Source: Candidatus Nomurabacteria bacterium (GTDB taxonomy: Bacteria > Patescibacteriota > Minisyncoccia > Phycocordibacterales > UBA2100). From it: 64,000 nucleotides of DNA. The stretch lies in the NCBI GenBank assembly GCA_943359395.1, contig CALRHH010000001.1, positions 20,121 through 84,120 of the forward strand. Direction: 5' to 3'. The notes beneath the pieces were generated by a model that had not been told where the DNA came from, did no database searches, and saw only the letters and a list, made by a program, of their open reading frames with translations. Positions 3,777 through 49,038 of this stretch are shown here, in pieces. Position 1 is the first letter of the stretch. Each line of letters begins with the position of its first letter. A program made the translations under genes and the position numbers.

Positions 3777-3835
3777 CAGCGCCAGTGTTGATATCACGAC
3801 GATTTCGTGTCGGTTAATGCTACAATTTCTCGGTG

Positions 3836-5257
3836 ATGGATGAATTTGAGCAAAAGGGGATTATCACCTCGGGCGACTTGCGTGCTTCTATTAGTGCCGT
3901 TACGAGTTTCGACATGCATGGGTTTGTCGACGGGTACATGGGCGGCTACTGGGGCATCTCGCGTTGTCTTGTTTTAAGCATCTTCTTTTGGGGCTTGTTC
4001 GCTGTGATGTGGGGCATGGTGCCAAGCTTGCCGCTCTTTGCCTTTGGGTGGCTCTTGGGAACGGCGCCCATCTGGCTCCCCGTCGCGGCACTCATAACGG
4101 CGTGGAAGGTGTGGGTGTGGTATGCGCATGCGGGATACATTTTCACTCGCGACTCCGTTCTTCTTGAAGTAAAAATGCCCCGGGATGTCACACGTTCACC
4201 ACGAGCCATGGAGAACGCTCTCTCCAAGCTTTGGACAGACTCTGGGGAGACAACTTTCCTAAATAGAATTTGGCAAGGCCAGGTGCGCCCTTACTTTTCA
4301 TTCGAGATAGCTTCTTTTGGCGGACAAATTCACTTTTATATCTGGTGCTGGCGCGCATGGCGACCGAATGTCGAGGCGATGATGTACGCATACTACCCAG
4401 AAGTCGAGATGGTGGAGGCGGAAGATTACGCGTCGAAATTCAGATTTGATCCCGAAACGCAGGACGCGTTTCCCACCGATTGGCGCTACGAGCCGCGCAA
4501 TGACGCGTACCCTATCCGTACCTACATCGAATTCGAACTAGACAAAGACCCTAAGGAGGAATACAAGATAGATCCACTTTCTGAAATATTAGAGAGGATG
4601 AGTATTCTTAAGCCCACGGAGCAGATGTGGATACAAATCATCATTACTCAGAGTCGAGATAAACGTCGCAAGAAAGGCGGTACGTGGCTTCAGCTCGAAG
4701 ATCGTTTCGTTGGTATGGTCAAGGAGGAAATCGACGCGCTGCGAAAGGAGACCGTCGGAAAGGGGGCTGATCCGAATCCTGATAATCCCGAGCGTTGGAA
4801 GTCGTTCGCGCGCGTACCGATGTATCGCTACACGGAGGTTATAAAGGCGATGGACCGCAATATGGGGAAGCATATATTTAATGTGGGTATGCGGGGTGTG
4901 TATATTGCCGATTCGAAGGACTTCAGTGCACCTGGATACACGGGTATCCGTTGGATATGGCGACCTGTTGGAAATCCGCAGTACATGAACCAGCTGCGCC
5001 CGCGTCGTTGGGGCAACCCATTCGACTGGCCGTGGCAAGACTTCAACAACATGCGTTGGAACCTTATGGTGCGACGCTACTTCGACACATATCGGCGCCG
5101 CTCTCATTTCTATGCTCCCTATCTCATGCCGCACAACATGATGTCTACAGAAGTGCTTGCCACCATATGGCATCCACCAAGTGCTGCAATCGGAGCTCCC
5201 GGTATTGCACGCATCCCTGCGAAGAAGGCGGAACCGCCGGCCAATTTGCCCAAGTAA
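3836..5257 (+). CDS. hypothetical membrane protein (473 aa): two N-terminal TM helices then a large Trp/Arg-rich soluble domain
   Basis: No nucleotide-binding or catalytic motifs recognised. A TACAAT -10 box lies 9 nt upstream of the ATG at 3836. The six-frame ORF begins 3 nt earlier with a GTG. Confidence 0.5.
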   Translation: MDEFEQKGIITSGDLRASISAVTSFDMHGFVDGYMGGYWGISRCLVLSIFFWGLFAVMWGMVPSLPLFAFGWLLGTAPIWLPVAALITAWKVWVWYAHAGYIFTRDSVLLEVKMPRDVTRSPRAMENALSKLWTDSGETTFLNRIWQGQVRPYFSFEIASFGGQIHFYIWCWRAWRPNVEAMMYAYYPEVEMVEAEDYASKFRFDPETQDAFPTDWRYEPRNDAYPIRTYIEFELDKDPKEEYKIDPLSEILERMSILKPTEQMWIQIIITQSRDKRRKKGGTWLQLEDRFVGMVKEEIDALRKETVGKGADPNPDNPERWKSFARVPMYRYTEVIKAMDRNMGKHIFNVGMRGVYIADSKDFSAPGYTGIRWIWRPVGNPQYMNQLRPRRWGNPFDWPWQDFNNMRWNLMVRRYFDTYRRRSHFYAPYLMPHNMMSTEVLATIWHPPSAAIGAPGIARIPAKKAEPPANLPK

Positions 5258-6349: not shown

Positions 6350-7429
6350 ATGAGGCAAGAGATATACGTAGGATTGTCAGGCGGTGTAGACAGTGCAGTT
6401 TCCGCGGCACTTCTAAAGGAACAGGGATATGACGTTGTTGGTGCATTCATCAAAATATGGCAGCCTGAATTTATTGAATGCACGTGGCGGGAAGAAAGAC
6501 TTGACGCAATGCGCGTATGCGCCGCCATCGGGATACCGTTCCGCGAAGTTGACTTCTCTCAGGAGTACAAGACGGAAGTGGTCGAGCGGATGGTCCGCGA
6601 TTATGCGCGCGGAGTCACTCCAAATCCCGACGTATTATGTAATCTACGCATAAAATTTGGTTCGTTTGCGCAGTGGGCGAAACGGGAAGGGGCCCACGGA
6701 ATAGCGACGGGGCACTACGCGCGTAAGAGGGAAGTCGGGGGCCACATGGAGCTCCTGCGTGCGCATGACCTTGCGAAAGACCAGTCGTATTTCCTCTACC
6801 GCATGACGCAGCTGGACCTCGCGCGCACCATGTTTCCGATTGGAGGAATGCTGAAGTCTGAAGTCCGTGCACTCGCCCATAAATTCAATTTACCAATAGC
6901 ACAGAAACCGGACAGCCAAGGATTGTGTTTTGTCGGAGAAGTCTCGATGGTAGATTTCCTTAAACGATTTATCCCCCTCTCCCCAGGAGTAGTTCTCTGT
7001 GGAGGAAAGGTCGTGGGTGAGCACGAAGGGGCGCCACTCTATACGATAGGTCAGCGGCATGGATTTTCGGTGTCGCAAGACTCGGCATCCCATCCGTACT
7101 ACGTAGTGGGTACTGATACCATTCAAAACCGTATCTATGTTTCTGCCCATCGGCAAGACGCGGAGCGTTCCGCCGTGACGCTTACCGATATCCACTGGGT
7201 ATACCGCGAACCAAAAATTCCACATTCTGTACAAGCACAAGCCCGCTATCACGAACGGACGGTGGGCGCGACGATTACGAAAGACGACAATACTTTCGCT
7301 GCCACATTCGACCGTCCGCACATGGCGTCTCCCGGTCAATCTCTCGTCTTCTACGCGTCGAGTTCATCCACGCAAGTCGAGGTTCCTCACGAAGACGATG
7401 TTTGTGTCGGAGGAGGCCTTATAAGATGA
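6350..7429 (+). CDS. mnmA: tRNA-specific 2-thiouridylase MnmA
   Basis: PP-loop SGGVDSAV at the N-terminus with conserved catalytic Cys context (GLCF) and the C-terminal barrel typical of MnmA. Confidence 0.9.
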   Translation: MRQEIYVGLSGGVDSAVSAALLKEQGYDVVGAFIKIWQPEFIECTWREERLDAMRVCAAIGIPFREVDFSQEYKTEVVERMVRDYARGVTPNPDVLCNLRIKFGSFAQWAKREGAHGIATGHYARKREVGGHMELLRAHDLAKDQSYFLYRMTQLDLARTMFPIGGMLKSEVRALAHKFNLPIAQKPDSQGLCFVGEVSMVDFLKRFIPLSPGVVLCGGKVVGEHEGAPLYTIGQRHGFSVSQDSASHPYYVVGTDTIQNRIYVSAHRQDAERSAVTLTDIHWVYREPKIPHSVQAQARYHERTVGATITKDDNTFAATFDRPHMASPGQSLVFYASSSSTQVEVPHEDDVCVGGGLIR

Positions 7430-7513
7430 TATTTGAAGGGAGGGTGCCAATTCACAAAATGGTTCATGTGGAGGCTCTTGAAGTGATGCGGGAGGCTATA
7501 CTGTAATGATTAT

Positions 7514-7933
7514 ATGGGCGCCATACTGTCACGCTTCCTGTGGTTCTTCGTGGTGGCAAGTCTTCTCTCGTATTCGACATTCCTCGTAGTGGGAAATATT
7601 GCAAACGCTCACGCCACGGGGAAGAATCTCCCCGTCGTTATCCGTGACGAGCTGGGTGTGGGCGTGCATCATTTATCGGGCATGGTCATGGTGGCCACGT
7701 CATGTGATCAGGTGTCCGTGCGTACCGAGGCGATTTCGGACACTACATTCGCACTCGTCTTTCGCACATGGCGCGAGCCGTCCGCCAAGTGTGCTCTCGA
7801 AGAAACACCCCGATACTTCCGAGCGATCCTTTTTGCACCTTCGGCGGGTGTTGAATTTGTGGCAACTCTCGATGATGTCAGTTTTCCTATAGTAGTTGCG
7901 CCTAATCTATCGAATCGGATTATTTTTGAATGA
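7514..7933 (+). CDS. hypothetical secreted or membrane-anchored small protein (139 aa)
   Basis: Hydrophobic N-terminal signal or TM segment (FLWFFVVASLLSYSTFLVVG). A TATACT -10 box lies 14 nt upstream of the ATG. No recognisable domain. Confidence 0.4.
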   Translation: MGAILSRFLWFFVVASLLSYSTFLVVGNIANAHATGKNLPVVIRDELGVGVHHLSGMVMVATSCDQVSVRTEAISDTTFALVFRTWREPSAKCALEETPRYFRAILFAPSAGVEFVATLDDVSFPIVVAPNLSNRIIFE

Positions 7934-8011
7934 TTGTTTTCTATGTCACATATCACACATCACCCGCATATCACTCCGCCTTCCAGAACAACCACGGCTC
8001 ACTCTCGGCAT

Positions 8012-8827
8012 ATGCTTATTACCAAGGCCGATGGTGAAAAAGAATCATTTGATCCTGCAAAACTCGAACACTCACTCGCCCTCTCGGGAGCGTCTTCCAC
8101 CATGCGGGCGAAGGTTTTAGCTCACGTCATGCACGAACTAAAAGACGGCATGATGACGGAAGAGATTTACCGCCGCGCATTTGAGATACTACGTCGCGAA
8201 GAGGTGACGCCTGTTGCAGCGCGCTATTCCATCAAACGTGCCGTTTTTGCGCTCGGTCCTTCAGGATTTCCCTTTGAGCAATTCCTTGCTGAGGTATTCA
8301 GGGGACACGGTTGGAAGGCACAAACGGGCGTGGCACTCAATGGACGATGCGCTCCGCACGAAGTTGATGTGCTTGCGGAAAAAAACGGCAAACGCATCGG
8401 AATTGAAGCAAAATTTCATAATGACCCGGGAGGGAAAACTGACATAAAAGACGCTCTTTATGTGCATGCGCGCTACGAAGATTTACGCAACACGCCCGAA
8501 GCGTCGTCACGGGTGGACGAGGGTTGGCTTGTCACGAATACCCGCTTTACACGCAACGCCATTAGATATGCTCAATGTTCAGGACTCTCGCTTGTGGGCT
8601 GGGATTACCCGCGTACCCGTAATTTGCTAACTTTGATTGAGGAAGCACGTGTCCATCCGCTCACATGCCTCACGACACTTACTGAGACCGAAAAACGCAG
8701 ATTTTTGGACCAGAAGATAGTACTCTGTAAGGACATGGGGGCCCCGCACCTCCTCAAGGAGTTCGGGGTGAAGCCCGAACGCGTTGCGGGAGTTGTACAA
8801 GAAGCTAAGCAGCTCTGTGGCGTGTAA
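8012..8827 (+). CDS. ATP-cone domain fused to an Mrr/restriction-endonuclease-like PD-(D/E)XK domain
   Basis: N-terminus LITKADGEKESFDPAKLEHSLALSGAS fits the ATP-cone pattern (V.KRDG..E.F...KI). C-terminus EVDVLAE...IGIEAKFH gives a D...E.K nuclease motif in an Mrr_cat-like arrangement. An alternative upstream start at 7934 directly abuts the previous gene. Confidence 0.65.
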   Translation: MLITKADGEKESFDPAKLEHSLALSGASSTMRAKVLAHVMHELKDGMMTEEIYRRAFEILRREEVTPVAARYSIKRAVFALGPSGFPFEQFLAEVFRGHGWKAQTGVALNGRCAPHEVDVLAEKNGKRIGIEAKFHNDPGGKTDIKDALYVHARYEDLRNTPEASSRVDEGWLVTNTRFTRNAIRYAQCSGLSLVGWDYPRTRNLLTLIEEARVHPLTCLTTLTETEKRRFLDQKIVLCKDMGAPHLLKEFGVKPERVAGVVQEAKQLCGV

Positions 8828-8856
8828 ATCTTTCTCAAATATCGTATACTGCAGCC

Positions 8857-9354
8857 ATGCTCGATCCCGCACTCTTCATGGATCCCACGATCGTCTTGTT
8901 TGCAAAGTTACTCTTGGCGATGCTCCTCGGCGGTATTATAGGTACGGAGCGAGCAGTTCTCGCAAAGCAGTCTGCGGGCACGCGAACATTCGGCCTCGTA
9001 TCTTTGGGAGCGTGTCTTTTCATTATTACGGGAAATTTCGTCGATACTGCCTACCTCAGTGTTCTTAATTCCGACCCCATGCGCACCGCCGCAGCAATTA
9101 TTATGGGTATAGGGTTCCTCGGGGGAGGGATAATCGTATTTCGCGGGGATACGGTGCACGGTACGACAACTGCCGCTGGTCTCTGGATAGCAGCCGGAGT
9201 CGGTATCGCGGTTGGCTTTGGAATGTATGCGATCGCTATCTTCACTACCACCCTTTCGCTTCTGATGTTTACGGGTATGTGGTATTTGGAAAATCGTTTC
9301 AAACACTGGTTTACCGAGCACGGACCTGATATGCGGGGAAGTGATGCGGCGTAG
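8857..9354 (+). CDS. mgtC: MgtC/SapB family membrane protein
   Basis: GTERAVLAKQSAGTRTFGLV followed by TTAAGLWIAAGVGIAVG; these are MgtC family signatures. Four to five TM helices. Confidence 0.8.
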   Translation: MLDPALFMDPTIVLFAKLLLAMLLGGIIGTERAVLAKQSAGTRTFGLVSLGACLFIITGNFVDTAYLSVLNSDPMRTAAAIIMGIGFLGGGIIVFRGDTVHGTTTAAGLWIAAGVGIAVGFGMYAIAIFTTTLSLLMFTGMWYLENRFKHWFTEHGPDMRGSDAA

Positions 9355-9364
9355 CTCCAGAGGG

Positions 9365-9444
9365 GAATGATATATCCCGTGAGATAGTGCCTCTCGCGCA
9401 GTGTTCGCTAACTCGAACCTTGTTATCTCACGGGGTATACTGCT
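9365..9444. repeat. inverted-repeat element, copy A: arms ATATATCCCGTGAGATAG and TTATCTCACGGGGTATACT flank about 40 nt
   Basis: The arms are near-perfect reverse complements. The right arm ends in a TATACT -10-like hexamer 6 nt before the ATG of the nuclease gene at 9448. A second copy lies at 12040-12116 and a single arm sits at the gltX start. Confidence 0.6.
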
Positions 9445-9447
9445 CGA

Positions 9448-10242
9448 ATGAGCGATTACTACAAGCCGGACAGAGGACCGAAATGGAATTACGGAGGCGA
9501 GAGCTGGAAGTTATCGCGTTCTAAAATAAGTTTGTTTCTGGAGTGTCCCCGGTGTTTTTATATAGACAATAAACTTGGCACAAAACGCCCCCCAGGCTTT
9601 CCTTTTAACCTCAACAGTGCCGTTGATTCACTATTGAAAAAGGAGTTCGACGTTCATCGTGCAGACGCAACGTCGCACCCGCTCATGAGTCAATACGGAG
9701 TCGATGCTGTGCCCTTTGCAGACGACCGCATGGACGCGTGGCGAGACGCACTGAAGCGAGGTGTTGAGTACACGCATACCGAGACAGGTTTTAGGATGAG
9801 TGGCGCAATCGATGATATCTGGGTTCGCCCCAACGGCGAATTGATAGTTGTAGACTATAAGGCCACCAGCAAGGATGGAAAAATTACTGAGCTGGACCAG
9901 GAGTGGCATACTGGGTACAAGCGCCAGTTGGAGGTCTATCAGTGGCTCCTGCGCAGAAACGGATTCAGTGTATCGAACACGGGGTACTGGGTGTATGCCA
10001 ATGCACATACGGATAGAAAAGCTTTTGATGGCCAGTTGGAATTTGAGGTTACGCTCGTCCCACACGAAGGCGATGATTCGTGGGTAGAGGGGACATTGTA
10101 CGATATAAAAAAATGTCTCGACAGCGAAGATATCCCCGCAGCGGCTCAGGATTGCGACTACTGTAGATATCGTGAGTATGCAGGAAAGAAACTGCAGGCG
10201 CTCGCCAAAAAGAAAAAAGAAACTAAATCGTTGGGGATATGA
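9448..10242 (+). CDS. PD-(D/E)XK nuclease, Cas4/RecB-like, with a predicted Fe-S cluster; not CRISPR-associated
   Basis: Nuclease motif D-x-EL(I/V)D-x-K in DDIWVRPNGELIVVDYKATSK. Cysteines at the N-terminus (CPRC) and C-terminus (C...CDYC) are arranged like the Cas4/AddB 4Fe-4S ligands. Confidence 0.7.
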   Translation: MSDYYKPDRGPKWNYGGESWKLSRSKISLFLECPRCFYIDNKLGTKRPPGFPFNLNSAVDSLLKKEFDVHRADATSHPLMSQYGVDAVPFADDRMDAWRDALKRGVEYTHTETGFRMSGAIDDIWVRPNGELIVVDYKATSKDGKITELDQEWHTGYKRQLEVYQWLLRRNGFSVSNTGYWVYANAHTDRKAFDGQLEFEVTLVPHEGDDSWVEGTLYDIKKCLDSEDIPAAAQDCDYCRYREYAGKKLQALAKKKKETKSLGI

Positions 10243-10305
10243 ACCCCGTTAGAAGCTTCGGGAAAAGGATTGTGATTCATACCATTGGCTTTTATACAAA
10301 AGAGT

Positions 10306-10575
10306 ATGGCTTCTAACGGGGTGAAGACCTTTACGGAGAAAGTCCGTGATATCGTGCGGAAAATCCCGAAAGGCACGTCGATGACCTACAAGGAAGTGGC
10401 GACCAAAGCGGGCAATCCGAAAGCCGCGCGCGGCGTCGGCGCCATCATGCGCTCGAGTTACAATCGCGACATTCCGTGTCATCGCGTCGTTAAATCAGAT
10501 GGTTCACTCGGAAGTTACAATCGCGGAGGCACTTCGCGCAAGAGGAAGCTCCTCGTCCAAGAAGGGGCGCTCTAG
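10306..10575 (+). CDS. methylated-DNA-[protein]-cysteine methyltransferase DNA-binding domain protein (YbaZ/Atl-like, 89 aa)
   Basis: HTH followed by the IPCHRVV active-site motif of O6-alkylguanine-DNA alkyltransferases. It lacks the N-terminal domain. A TATACA -10 box lies 7 nt upstream of this ATG; the six-frame ORF starts earlier at 10285. Confidence 0.7.
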   Translation: MASNGVKTFTEKVRDIVRKIPKGTSMTYKEVATKAGNPKAARGVGAIMRSSYNRDIPCHRVVKSDGSLGSYNRGGTSRKRKLLVQEGAL

Positions 10576-12011
10576 AGGTTGGGAGAAAAAAGGATATTCT
10601 TGAACTGCCACGGGTCTTTCTTGTCGACGTCTTCGACGAAAAGGTTCTGACGGTCTTTGAGCGGAGTCCAATCAGTGTAGCTGCCTGTCATGGTTCCGAG
10701 ATACGGCTCCATGACTTCCATGATGCGTTCGTAGTCCATTTCGTCAGCTTCGACGACTCCCTCATTCGGGTTCTCTATCGTCCACACCATCGCGCCCAAG
10801 ACGCCGACCGTCACCTGCAAGCCCGTCGCGTTCTGATACGGAGCAAGCTTTCGTGTCTCTTCGATGGTCAACTGCGAGCCGTACCAGTACGCGCCTTTCT
10901 TGTGCCCCATGAGAAGCACTCCGAGCTCGTCCATGCCGGTCTTGATGTCGTCCATGAGTATATATTGCTCCTTCTGAAGCTGCGAATTATTGCCGAAGCA
11001 CTCCTCAATAGAGAGAATGGATGCATCGCACGAACGATACGCGTAGTGCACGGTTGGGCGAAAGACCGCCTTTTTGCCCTTGCGGACGGTGTAATAATCC
11101 GCGATAGAAACGGATTCGTTGTGCGTGACGGCACGGCCGAGGAACGGTCCGTGCTTAGGCGTCCAAGTGCGCACCAAGGTCTTTGCACCCGGCTGGTCGA
11201 GGTAGATGGCGGCGTCGCAGCCATGCGGATGCCGGTGTCCGTTTTTGGGGAAGTACTTCTCATGCGTGCCCCAACCCATTTCACATGGCTGACAGATGCC
11301 TTCGGAATGGAAGCCGACGACGGACCACGTATTCTCGAAACGGCCTACCTTTTTCGGCTTGTCGGATACCTGAGAGTCGTACTCCGCGATGTGAACAGTT
11401 TTCACGCCAAGCTTGCTCATGAGGCCGGCCCACTCCTCGCGAGTCTGCGGCTTTTTGGCTTTGACGCCCGTATCGCGGGCGATATGCATAAGGGCTCGCT
11501 TCAAGAAGTGCGAAACGATGCCAGGATTCGCGCCGTGTGTGGAAACTGCCGTCGGTCCCTTGCCGAATTTTTTCTTCGTCGCGAGCATGGTCTCACGCAG
11601 ACCGTAGTTGGAGCGCTGTGTAGTAGAGAGCTTGGGATCGGTGTATCCGCCAAGCCACGGCTCCACGACGGTGTCGAGATACAGTATGTCGCGTTTGTTG
11701 CAGTACTCCATGAGCGCCACAGACGAGACGTCTACCGAGAGGTTCAAAAGGAAGTCTCCCTTGTCGAGATATTTGTCGAGGACTTTCTTGTAGTTGCCCC
11801 GCTTGAGCGGCTCTATTAAAAAAGGGATGCCTTCGATGCGCGCGACATCGCGGCCGAGTTCATCCGCCGTGATGATGCGGATATTCTTTCTGTCCATTCC
11901 GATATGACGCAAGATGAGAGGGAGTACACCCTGTCCGATAGAGCCGAAACCAACGATGAGCAACTTGCCACCAAACTGTACGTGAACGGAATATTTACTT
12001 TTTTTCTTCAT
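10572..12011 (-). CDS. hss: homospermidine synthase (bacterial type, EC 2.5.1.44)
   Basis: 479 aa. N-terminal Rossmann motif (IVGFGSIGQG) plus NLSVDVSS, DTVVEPW, NATGLQV and a C-terminal DPWQF. These are the motifs I recall for bacterial homospermidine synthases. The assignment is from memory of the family and was not searched. Confidence 0.7.
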   Translation of the reverse strand: MKKKSKYSVHVQFGGKLLIVGFGSIGQGVLPLILRHIGMDRKNIRIITADELGRDVARIEGIPFLIEPLKRGNYKKVLDKYLDKGDFLLNLSVDVSSVALMEYCNKRDILYLDTVVEPWLGGYTDPKLSTTQRSNYGLRETMLATKKKFGKGPTAVSTHGANPGIVSHFLKRALMHIARDTGVKAKKPQTREEWAGLMSKLGVKTVHIAEYDSQVSDKPKKVGRFENTWSVVGFHSEGICQPCEMGWGTHEKYFPKNGHRHPHGCDAAIYLDQPGAKTLVRTWTPKHGPFLGRAVTHNESVSIADYYTVRKGKKAVFRPTVHYAYRSCDASILSIEECFGNNSQLQKEQYILMDDIKTGMDELGVLLMGHKKGAYWYGSQLTIEETRKLAPYQNATGLQVTVGVLGAMVWTIENPNEGVVEADEMDYERIMEVMEPYLGTMTGSYTDWTPLKDRQNLFVEDVDKKDPWQFKNILFSPNL

Positions 12012-12039: not shown

Positions 12040-12116
12040 AAGTCTATACCCCGTGAGATAGAAACGGTCTACGTCGATAACAAAAAACAATTGATTTTAT
12101 CTCACGGGGTATACTT
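12040..12116. repeat. inverted-repeat element, copy B: arms GTCTATACCCCGTGAGATAG and TTATCTCACGGGGTATACT in the divergent hss/ung intergenic region
   Basis: Same terminal arms as copy A but a different internal sequence of about 40 nt. The right arm ends 6 nt before the ung ATG. The left arm, read on the minus strand, faces hss. Confidence 0.6.
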
Positions 12117-12121
12117 GGCAA

Positions 12122-12802
12122 ATGGGGGATAAAGAGGGGAATGTAAAGATAGAAGCCTCGTGGAAGAAAGTCTTGCAAGATGAGTTCGGCAAAGAGTATT
12201 TCACCAAGCTGCGGGAATTCGTGAAAGGGGAGTATCAGCACGCCATCGTGTATCCCGCGCCCAAGAATATTTTCCGCGCCTTCGACCTTTGTCCGTTCGA
12301 CAAAATAGAGGTGGTAATCCTCGGCCAAGACCCGTACCACGGTCCCAATCAAGCCAACGGCCTCTGCTTTGCGGTGAGCGAAGGCGTGCCTTTGCCTCCG
12401 TCGCTCCAAAATATATTTAAGGAATTGGCGACCGACATTGGACTCGTGAAAAACAAAACAGGGGACTTGGAGCGCTGGGCCAAGCAAGGCGTGCTGCTTT
12501 TGAACGCGACTCTCACCGTGCGCGCACGCACTGCAGGCTCACATCAAGGGAAAGGCTGGGAAGAATTCACCGACGCGGTCATCCGCAAACTTTCGGAAGA
12601 GCGCGAGAACCTCGTATTTATCCTCTGGGGCAATTACGCCAAATCCAAAGGCGCACACATCGACCGCACCAAGCATTTGGTAATCGAATCCGCTCACCCG
12701 TCCCCATTTTCAGCTGCGAATGGCTTCTTCGGCTCCAAACCCTTCAGCAAAACTAACGACTACCTGGCGGCCCATAACAAAAAACCGATCGATTGGCTTT
12801 AG
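12122..12802 (+). CDS. ung: uracil-DNA glycosylase (family 1)
   Basis: Hallmark motifs VVILGQDPYHGPNQANGLCFAV, LLLNATLTV and HPSPFSA. Confidence 0.95.
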   Translation: MGDKEGNVKIEASWKKVLQDEFGKEYFTKLREFVKGEYQHAIVYPAPKNIFRAFDLCPFDKIEVVILGQDPYHGPNQANGLCFAVSEGVPLPPSLQNIFKELATDIGLVKNKTGDLERWAKQGVLLLNATLTVRARTAGSHQGKGWEEFTDAVIRKLSEERENLVFILWGNYAKSKGAHIDRTKHLVIESAHPSPFSAANGFFGSKPFSKTNDYLAAHNKKPIDWL

Positions 12803-48941: not shown

Positions 48942-49038
48942 CCCCATGAGAGAATGGATCATTTATGTTCAATATATCTACATCACCGCAATCATTACAA
49001 ACTTCGCTGATTCATTTGGCGTTTCTCTCTCACGGGGT

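Follow-up and report, generated by a model that had tools for sequence, protein, structure and literature searches.

The ATP-cone serves as the allosteric switch of ribonucleotide reductases (RNRs) and of the repressor NrdR. In the 64-kb stretch of Patescibacteria DNA analyzed here (contig CALRHH010000001.1; the whole stretch is called the window), a gene termed g2 joins an ATP-cone to a nuclease domain of the PD-(D/E)XK type, and its only solved relative by sequence is the protein AF1548 (PDB 1Y88; E 1.9e-30 over g2 residues 91-270). AF1548 has been predicted to be a restriction endonuclease with D38, E51 and K53 as predicted catalytic residues (PMC1821046), to which D119, E132 and K134 of g2 correspond. 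A literature search found no description of an ATP-cone/nuclease fusion and no published function for any member of the g2 family.

g2 is one of five plus-strand open reading frames (ORFs), termed g1 to g5, within positions 7514-10575 of the window; all five were found at the coordinates given below. An earlier note on this DNA had taken them for an accessory, non-housekeeping cluster with a defense or repair theme. The locus itself is not new: all genes except g1 belong to catalogued families, and near-identical sequences are already present in public metagenome-assembled genomes. Here, we describe the domain organization, distribution and gene neighborhoods of g2. The region is very likely a core segment and not a defense locus. 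Our best explanation as a whole, which in our judgment stands at an even chance of being right, is that g2 is an adenine-nucleotide-gated housekeeping nuclease concerned with nucleic-acid turnover and nucleotide economy.

Domain Organization of g2

The gene and its three domains are located as follows.

7943..8827, plus strand: g2, 294 aa, ATP-cone, Mrr_cat PD-(D/E)XK domain and AF1548-like C-terminal domain (ORF 7934-8827; conserved core from 8012)
8012..8239, plus strand: ATP-cone of g2 (PF03477; NrdR/RNR cone fold)
8264..8596, plus strand: Mrr_cat nuclease core of g2 (PF04471; D at 8366-8368, E at 8405-8407, K at 8411-8413)
8699..8815, plus strand: AF1548-like C-terminal helical domain of g2 (PF22357 family matches; 1Y88 alignment)

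Close relatives carry Ile or Val at the position of Met-8012, and therefore translation of g2 begins further upstream, most likely, as the sequence comparison suggests, at ATG 7943, which gives a protein of 294 residues with a poorly conserved N-terminal tail of 23 residues. Residue numbers used here for the conserved positions (K5 to K134) are those of the 271-residue form counted from 8012.

The fusion of an ATP-cone with a restriction-endonuclease-like PD-(D/E)XK domain, which the earlier note had read from the sequence, is real. Both domains match Pfam above the cut-offs, the ATP-cone (PF03477) with 27.9 bits against 25.8 and the nuclease (Mrr_cat, PF04471) with 37.3 bits against 21; the cone match is weak or missing for some homologues in precomputed tables. 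A third domain can be added to that description: the C-terminal 60 residues match AF1548-like_C (PF22357), which was found in nine of the 10 family members scanned, five of them above the cut-off of 23.9 bits, the match of g2 of the window being weak (15 bits). Neither PADLOC nor NCBIfam provided a family-level name for g2. D119, E132 and K134 of the nuclease, together with K5 and G8 of the cone, are invariant in 32 homologues having 35-59% identity to g2 of the window, and K17 of the cone is invariant in a second alignment covering the ATP-cone region.

The AlphaFold model of g2 has high scores (mean predicted local distance difference test, pLDDT, 95; predicted template modeling score, pTM, 0.90) and supports the same organization. 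Its N-terminus shows the beta-hairpin and four helices expected of an ATP-cone, and Foldseek superimposes it on NrdR (9fvr, 9fxk) and on the cones of the RNRs NrdA and NrdD with a root-mean-square deviation (rmsd) of 1.5-1.7 Å over 80 residues. For the nuclease part, AF1548 (1Y88) comes first (E 2e-15, TM-score 0.80), followed by the cores of NucS, MspJI, AspBHI, Can2 and Cdn1. Because designed helical repeats dominated the PDB sequences matched by a profile of the ATP-cone region, the cone was aligned by hhalign directly with residues 1-96 of Escherichia coli NrdA, giving a probability of 94%. The residues of NrdA that we take to contact the nucleotide are K9, R10, E15, K21, T55 and H59. Four of them are kept in g2 (K5 for K9, E11 for E15, K17 for K21 and T49 for T55), and two are changed, A6 standing for R10 and Y53 for H59. 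From the sequence, the nuclease looks active, and the modeled fold makes binding of an adenine nucleotide plausible.

Distribution and Conservation of g2

In an exhaustive search with HMMER through 1.84 billion representative sequences (clusters at 50% identity), 1,191 relatives of g2 reached E≤1e-3, and 436 of them also reached E≤1e-30. The top 150 have lengths of about 270-290 residues and are matched from end to end, apart from a few fragments and some longer proteins matched in two stretches, so that the architecture of the family is fixed at about 280 residues. In a scan of GTDB with one genome per species, at least 597 species have a confirmed g2-family locus; the 80 loci retained from them belong to Patescibacteria (Kaiser-, Zambryski-, Yonath-, Lloyd-, Taylorbacteria and others) and to Bacteroidota, the latter including the cultured Cyclobacterium, Pontibacter and Kaistella. 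Psychroserpens and Chitinophaga are further cultured Bacteroidota with a member, and the family is also present in Chlamydiota. It is not mobile: there was no match in 50,697 phage records or in 2.9 million IMG/VR contigs, and only two of 72,556 plasmids carry a full-length member. PADLOC reported no system-level match, only a domain-level match of 20 bits between g2 and the ZorD nuclease and generic Cas4 models for g4.

How constant is the region around g2? Its other genes and elements are as follows.

6350..7429, plus strand: mnmA, tRNA 2-thiouridine synthase (Pfam tRNA_Me_trans, 241 bits); immediate upstream neighbor of g2 in almost every Patescibacteria locus
7514..7933, plus strand: g1, small protein, hydrophobic and signal-like at its N-terminus
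8857..9354, plus strand: g3, membrane protein of the MgtC/SapB family, consisting of the membrane domain alone and having a promoter of its own (PF02308; TATACT at 8845)
9371..9439, strand undefined: inverted-repeat element 1 (16-nt arms, 37-nt spacer); right arm overlaps the g4 TATACT box
9448..10242, plus strand: g4, standalone PD-(D/E)XK nuclease of the Cas4/RecB/Exo5/MGME1 superfamily (PDDEXK_1)
10243..10322, strand undefined: inverted-repeat element 2 (14-nt perfect arms, 52-nt spacer), from the g4 stop to the first g5 codons
10306..10575, plus strand: g5, one-domain O6-alkylguanine-DNA alkyltransferase, MGMT C-terminal domain (PF01035; alternative start TTG 10285)
10572-12011, minus strand: the gene called hss, saccharopine-dehydrogenase family, 479 aa, between the MGMT gene and the gene for uracil-DNA glycosylase (UDG)
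12045..12113, strand undefined: inverted-repeat element 3 (19-nt arms, 31-nt spacer), between hss (minus) and UDG (plus); right arm overlaps the UDG TATACT box
12122..12802, plus strand: UDG (PF03167, 62.5 bits), syntenic in relatives

To obtain an unbiased sample, 80 metagenome loci were fetched with the window mnmA protein alone (52-79% identity), and each gene was counted over the loci having enough downstream sequence to evaluate it. g2 is present in 52 of 53 loci, MgtC in 44 of 48, g4 in 38 of 39 and g5 in 33 of 37, always in the same order. The median identity to the window is 75.6% for g2, 71.3% for g5, 70.1% for g4, 68.6% for MgtC, 58% for mnmA and 47% for g1. Since the value for g2 lies above that for mnmA, g2 is under stronger constraint than the tRNA-modification enzyme. 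Likewise, contigs carrying g2 relatives at 77-83% identity have mnmA, sometimes g1, then g2, MgtC, PDDEXK_1, MGMT and, after an interval, UDG and an M16 peptidase in the same order as the window. GC content is level across the region and composition is the same as in the flanks. With g2 and g4 almost uniformly present in a fixed order and no difference in composition from the surroundings, the description of the region as an accessory, non-housekeeping cluster has to be given up; uniform presence as core genes is the very outcome that the earlier note had named as refuting it.

Gene Neighborhoods of g2 across Phyla

In 46 Patescibacteria loci from outside Kaiserbacteria, the constant neighbor of g2 is mnmA, lying directly upstream and often only 20-130 nt away, with a DUF8128 gene further up. 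The genes found downstream are MgtC (18 loci), g4 (18), g5 (14), a UDG-family gene (14), DUF7282 (11) and an HD/YfbR-like 5'-deoxynucleotidase (nine); this last gene directly follows g2 in six of the nine loci that have one nearby. Alanyl-tRNA synthetase (AlaRS) is found downstream in 25 of the 46. Synteny from DUF8128 to AlaRS extends across Patescibacteria, with the g2 stretch between mnmA and AlaRS, and the whole pattern is one of backbone synteny between housekeeping genes with lineage-specific insertions and deletions. The pairing of g2 with g4 that the earlier note had considered thus exists within Patescibacteria, where it tracks inherited synteny, but not beyond: in Bacteroidota and Chlamydiota, none of 23 loci has g4, g5, mnmA or UDG near g2.

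What follows g2 in these 23 loci is a gene for a beta-CASP/RMMBL metallo-hydrolase in 13, a thymidine-phosphorylase-like gene in eight and a phosphoribosyl pyrophosphate (PRPP)-synthetase-like gene in eight, and a P-type cation ATPase is nearby in 11. The cassette genes are often co-directional with g2, with overlapping stop and start codons. Further neighbors encode GAPDH-like protein, 2-hydroxyacid dehydrogenase, Usp, phosphofructokinase, phosphoketolase, glycogen phosphorylase and acetate kinase. The cassette has the following form.

L047, L059, L070, L166, L167 and L171 (e.g., L167:9001-13608): tightly packed cassette headed by the g2 orthologue, in the order ATP-cone nuclease, beta-CASP MBL hydrolase, thymidine-phosphorylase-family protein, ribose-phosphate pyrophosphokinase-like protein

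In Psychroserpens, a protein with MgtC and DUF4010 domains is encoded inside the same co-directional array as g2, and therefore the association of g2 with MgtC recurs in a second phylum, whereas that of g2 with g4 does not. The 64-kb window contains none of the beta-CASP, thymidine-phosphorylase-like, Prs-like and P-type ATPase genes of the cassette.

A Proposed Nucleotide-Gated Nuclease and Its Alternatives

A model that brings these observations together is as follows. The region is very probably a conserved backbone segment of the chromosome of Candidatus Kaiserbacteria (Patescibacteria), the group to which the names of the best database matches assign the window. It is composed of separately transcribed units and contains no defense island. 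Initially, the ATP-cone of g2 would bind ATP or dATP as in NrdR and RNR, as its fold and partly conserved contact residues suggest. By analogy with these proteins, nucleotide occupancy may then alter the conformation or oligomeric state of g2 and so switch the nuclease on or off. Judging from the neighborhoods in three phyla, the enzyme might cut cellular DNA or RNA for turnover and for recycling of nucleotides and pentose when energy or nucleotides are limiting. MgtC would form a second unit, and g4, g5 and UDG a third, a DNA-repair set behind related palindromic elements.

The specific role of g2 in nucleic-acid turnover and nucleotide recycling is a tentative assignment, somewhat more apt to be wrong than right. 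A fuller version is possible and on balance doubtful: g2 would be an adenylate-sensing nuclease that responds to a fall in ATP or in the ATP/dATP balance by initiating the controlled degradation of nucleic acid, whether cellular or imported, its products passing first to the beta-CASP nuclease, next to a nucleoside or nucleotide phosphorylase and finally to the PRPP-synthetase-like enzyme in Bacteroidota and Chlamydiota, or to salvage by 5'-nucleotidase in nucleotide-auxotrophic Patescibacteria.

Why should a gated turnover nuclease fit? It does so because g2 is core in Patescibacteria, a group that to our knowledge lacks de novo nucleotide synthesis; because a 5'-nucleotidase gene is its neighbor in some of them; because a nuclease/phosphorylase/PRPP-synthetase cassette exists in two other phyla; and because genes for MgtC, P-type ATPase and Usp accompany g2. 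A published lead can be set beside the cassette: in Bradyrhizobium diazoefficiens, the core set of proteins and transcripts induced by microoxia includes a trio encoding MBL, PRPP-synthetase and thymidine-phosphorylase-family proteins (bll3115-3117; PMC6515984, Table 2).

Several points weigh against this explanation. The score of the ATP-cone barely exceeds the Pfam cut-off, and because the contacts R10 and H59 of NrdA are replaced by Ala and Tyr in g2, the ligand may differ from ATP/dATP. AF1548 (1Y88) is a structural-genomics entry of unassigned function, the activity of which is predicted only (PMC1821046). The neighborhoods are mixed, beta-CASP being missing in 10 of the 23 loci outside Patescibacteria and the Pontibacter chromosomal loci being without any cassette gene. 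The likeness of the Bradyrhizobium trio to the g2 cassette is one of product names only. Core status was measured in the Kaiserbacteria-level clade, where some of the sampled contigs share a site of origin and two or more pairs are duplicates, and synteny inside Patescibacteria may mirror slow genome rearrangement and not functional linkage. As to the substrate, mnmA and AlaRS as neighbors point to RNA, and DNA would suit the repair neighbors and the helical domain at the C-terminus.

Two other roles can be considered. One is that of a repair or recombination nuclease resembling Hjc, RecU or NucS, which would act with g4, g5 and UDG, the cone coupling cutting to the supply of deoxynucleotides. 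We regard this as unlikely. In Patescibacteria, g4, MGMT and UDG are found within 1-3 kb of g2, which directly adjoins g4 in eight loci, but g2 does not share the palindromic element of g4, g5 and UDG, and no repair gene adjoins it in the 23 loci outside Patescibacteria. Some sources call its homologues 'Holliday junction resolvase-like', and the fold matches NucS/EndoMS (2vld, 5gkj), a likeness that is confined to the generic nuclease core (TM-score 0.3-0.4).

The other is that of an ATP-controlled nuclease directed to RNA, engaged in processing or decay of tRNA or rRNA, an idea that partly overlaps with our best explanation and that we consider rather improbable as a separate one. The relatives of Mrr_cat and AF1548 having known activity are DNases, and no RNA-binding domain was detected in g2. 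The neighborhoods speak for it in two ways, since mnmA is the most constant neighbor in Patescibacteria, with AlaRS downstream, and the next gene in Bacteroidota and Chlamydiota encodes a beta-CASP/RMMBL nuclease with an 'RNA specificity domain'; the adjacency to mnmA may, however, be plain synteny.

A role in defense was favored by the earlier note, which supposed that a nuclease gated by an ATP-cone might sense the perturbation of nucleotide pools during phage infection. The gating is structurally plausible, and the nuclease core does resemble the Can2 and Cdn1 effectors; the part concerning phage infection finds no support. As an anti-phage effector, g2 would act in a type IV-like or abortive-infection manner, possibly together with g4, upon a shift in ATP/dATP sensed by the cone. 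The layout of a sensor followed by a PD-(D/E)XK effector parallels Can2, Cdn1 and other ligand-gated defense nucleases, there is a domain-level match between the nuclease core and the Mrr-like nuclease of ZorD, and a g2 copy on a Criblamydia plasmid lies 8 kb from an AbiE toxin-antitoxin pair. Against these parallels, g2 is nearly universal, fixed in position and conserved above mnmA in Kaiserbacteria; it has no copies in phages or IMG/VR and almost none on plasmids, no PADLOC system and no compositional anomaly; and its neighbors in three phyla are metabolic, transport and housekeeping genes. An anti-phage role is thus very improbable. Of the defense or repair theme, it is repair that survives, and it fits g4, g5 and UDG; defense does not suit genes that are core and without a PADLOC system-level match.

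That g2 is an NrdR-like nucleotide-responsive regulator using its nuclease fold for DNA binding only is scarcely credible, for although the cone fold is closest to NrdR (rmsd 1.5-1.7 Å), g2 has no Zn-ribbon, no conserved operator was found, and the catalytic D/E/K residues are invariant across the 32 homologues at 35-59% identity, which is unexpected for a dead nuclease.

Transcription Units of the Region

The sequence TATACT followed by ATG at a distance of 6-9 nt occurs nine times in the window against 1.8 expected, and stands before g1, MgtC, g4 and UDG and not before g2.

7497, 8845, 9436, 12110, 16257, 24582, 29338, 29965 and, on the minus strand, 52325: TATACT-N6-9-ATG sites

A generic scan of the window for sigma-70 promoters and terminators gave counts at or below those expected from shuffled sequence. 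Because MgtC, g4 and UDG have their own TATACT promoters, a single operon of five genes is ruled out, and the region therefore consists of several transcription units: g1-g2, MgtC, g4, perhaps g5, and UDG. As a separate observation, the excess of these sites suggests that leaderless or near-leaderless mRNAs are made from many genes of this organism.

g1 begins with a hydrophobic stretch ending in ANA-HA, as read directly from the sequence, which agrees with the small secreted protein of the earlier note; it has no family match in Pfam, NCBIfam or PADLOC. A TATACT box at 7497-7502 precedes its ATG. The g1 stop is 9 nt ahead of the g2 ATG at 7943, and in the relative L003 there is an overlap of 4 nt between the two, so that g1 is probably co-transcribed with g2. 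It is an optional companion, missing in L005 and many other loci.

g3 is MgtC as previously identified (PF02308, 106 bits). Its NCBIfam match spans only positions 5-137 of 215, and the C-terminal soluble domain of enterobacterial MgtC is missing. The MgtC family has been linked to Mg2+ and ATP homeostasis, and MgtC of Salmonella lowers ATP via its action on the F1Fo ATP synthase.

The Repair Genes and Their Palindromic Elements

g4 had been described as a Cas4/RecB-like nuclease with Fe-S cysteines. The superfamily is right (PDDEXK_1, PF12705, 62.4 bits against a cut-off of 22) and four cysteines are invariant, along with the motifs DD.W, DYK and Q..YQWL; the affinity to Cas4 itself is less close, because the cysteines are arranged as CxxC...CxxC (2+2), compared with C...CxxCx5C (1+3) in Cas4, and the scores fall below the Cas4 cut-offs (Cas_Cas4, PF01930, 22.3 against 22.7; TIGR00372, 40.7 against 65). 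The model of g4 is of moderate confidence (pLDDT 83). Foldseek matches it at E 1e-6 to 1e-3 with 7mi4, 8d3l, 4r5q, 6ppu, 3h4r, 7lw9 and 5zyt, Cas4, MGME1, AdnAB, RecE and Exo5 being the nearest. Homologues number in the thousands under the name 'PD-(D/E)XK nuclease family protein'. As had been noted before, the window has no CRISPR array or cas gene near g4. Scans of its whole 64 kb for CRISPR arrays, tandem repeats, tRNAs and Rfam families were negative, and no cas Pfam families were found in the neighborhoods of relatives. With hidden Markov model (HMM) scores below the cut-offs, no cas context and core status in its clade, g4 cannot be regarded as a stray Cas4.

Most g4 homologues from outside Kaiserbacteria (within L025-L076, e.g., L026:9863-10699 and L049:2721-3581) have a Lys-rich low-complexity linker followed by a C-terminal (T/S)LF, a tail that resembles those binding the sliding clamp; g4 of the window ends in KETKSLGI instead (10200-10242).

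g5 matches DNA_binding_1 (PF01035) with 94.1 bits and TIGR00589, of the ogt superfamily, with 72.5 bits, and probably starts at ATG 10306. Its IPCHRVV sequence aligns with the active sites of Ada and human MGMT, which bears out the earlier statement that the PCHR cysteine, the acceptor, is kept.

The palindromic promoter element reported before g4 is real (9371-9439) and recurs before g5 and UDG. The three inverted repeats have a common arm core, CCCCGT(G/T)AGA...TCT(C/A)ACGGGG, stand directly before the three genes with spacers of 31-52 nt, and overlap with their right arms a TATACT box or a start codon. The arm motif has eight matches in the window against 1.9 expected. As RNA, element 1 folds with a z-score of -5.5 (-32.1 kcal/mol), element 2 with -4.1 and element 3 with -6.3. 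In addition, a direct repeat of 34 nt is common to the promoters of g4 and UDG, and the same arms precede the same three genes in some relatives. The palindromes are not mere general promoter consensus, since the TCTCACGGGG extension is missing from other TATACT promoters of the window. g2 has no such element. An element shared by g4, g5 and UDG therefore suggests that these genes form a small DNA-repair set under common control, apart from g2 and MgtC. The element had no match in Rfam; it may act as an operator or as a hairpin in RNA, or it may be a small mobile repeat. At 49028-49036, one isolated half-site (TCTCACGGGGT-ATG) adjoins the likely true start of gltX.

Of the flanking genes named earlier, mnmA is confirmed, and 'hss' is more safely called a saccharopine-dehydrogenase-family gene of 479 codons. 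The slot between MGMT and UDG is variable. It contains this homospermidine-synthase-like gene on the minus strand in the window and others, eight of the 80 mnmA-seeded loci; elsewhere (position compared in L001, L005 and L012) it contains a plus-strand Orn/DAP/Arg-decarboxylase gene and a different Sacchrp_dh gene, or is empty. The decarboxylase and Sacchrp_dh pair looks like carboxyspermidine-type polyamine synthesis.

Upstream of mnmA, a 474-residue protein (window 3833-5257) has no Pfam match at the threshold used, and is DUF8128 in the precomputed table of one relative. It is conserved ahead of the yceG and mnmA genes throughout Patescibacteria, with identities of 31-73%, and forms part of the same syntenic backbone. 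Further away, an inverted repeat with perfect arms of 21 nt and only 2 nt between them (CGCATACATAATAAAAGTACG / CGTACTTTTATTATGTATGCG) occupies positions 988-1031, just beyond the 3' end of a minus-strand ORF of 462 residues (1033-2421) and before the minus-strand ORF 320-922; judged by position alone, these ORFs correspond to dnaB and recR of L001.

Comparison with Known Systems

If the proposed gating is true, ATP-cone allostery extends past deoxyribonucleotide synthesis to nucleic-acid catabolism, and cleavage is tied to adenine-nucleotide status. The g2 family is widespread (at least 597 species), highly constrained, core in a symbiont lineage with reduced genomes, and tractable in cultured Bacteroidota. 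The locus also holds a caution, in that domain content suggestive of defense, such as a nuclease with a sensor or a 'Cas4-like' protein, may be core housekeeping, and tests of conservation and neighborhood can tell the two apart.

g4 has in common with Cas4, AddB/AdnAB, Exo5 and MGME1 the fold, the RecB motifs (D, DxK, QxxxY) and four cysteines that may form a cluster across the N- and C-termini. It differs in the 2+2 arrangement of its cysteines, in scoring below the Cas4 HMM cut-offs, in having no cas/CRISPR context, and in being core in Kaiserbacteria. g5 corresponds to the C-terminal DNA-binding/active-site domain of Ogt, Ada and MGMT, with PCHR, and has no counterpart of the N-terminal domain present in Ogt and MGMT; it differs from ATL proteins in retaining the acceptor cysteine.

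For g2, four kinds of system can be compared. Mrr-type (type IV) restriction endonucleases have the Mrr_cat catalytic domain in common with it, whereas g2 has no N-terminal modified-DNA-binding domain and is a core, syntenic gene and not a patchy island gene. In Can2/Card1 and Cdn1, the CARF-PD-(D/E)XK proteins of type III CRISPR signaling, an N-terminal ligand sensor is joined to a nuclease domain that aligns with that of g2; the sensor of g2 is an ATP-cone, not CARF, its context includes no CRISPR or cyclase gene, and its predicted ligand is a primary metabolite. AF1548 shares the nuclease core, the C-terminal helical domain and the D/E/K triad, but has no ATP-cone. The cones of NrdR and of class I and III RNRs have the same fold as the N-terminus of g2, where by analogy the same logic would be expected, namely that adenine-nucleotide occupancy controls the attached module; in g2 this module is a nuclease, in place of a Zn-ribbon DNA binder or a reductase.

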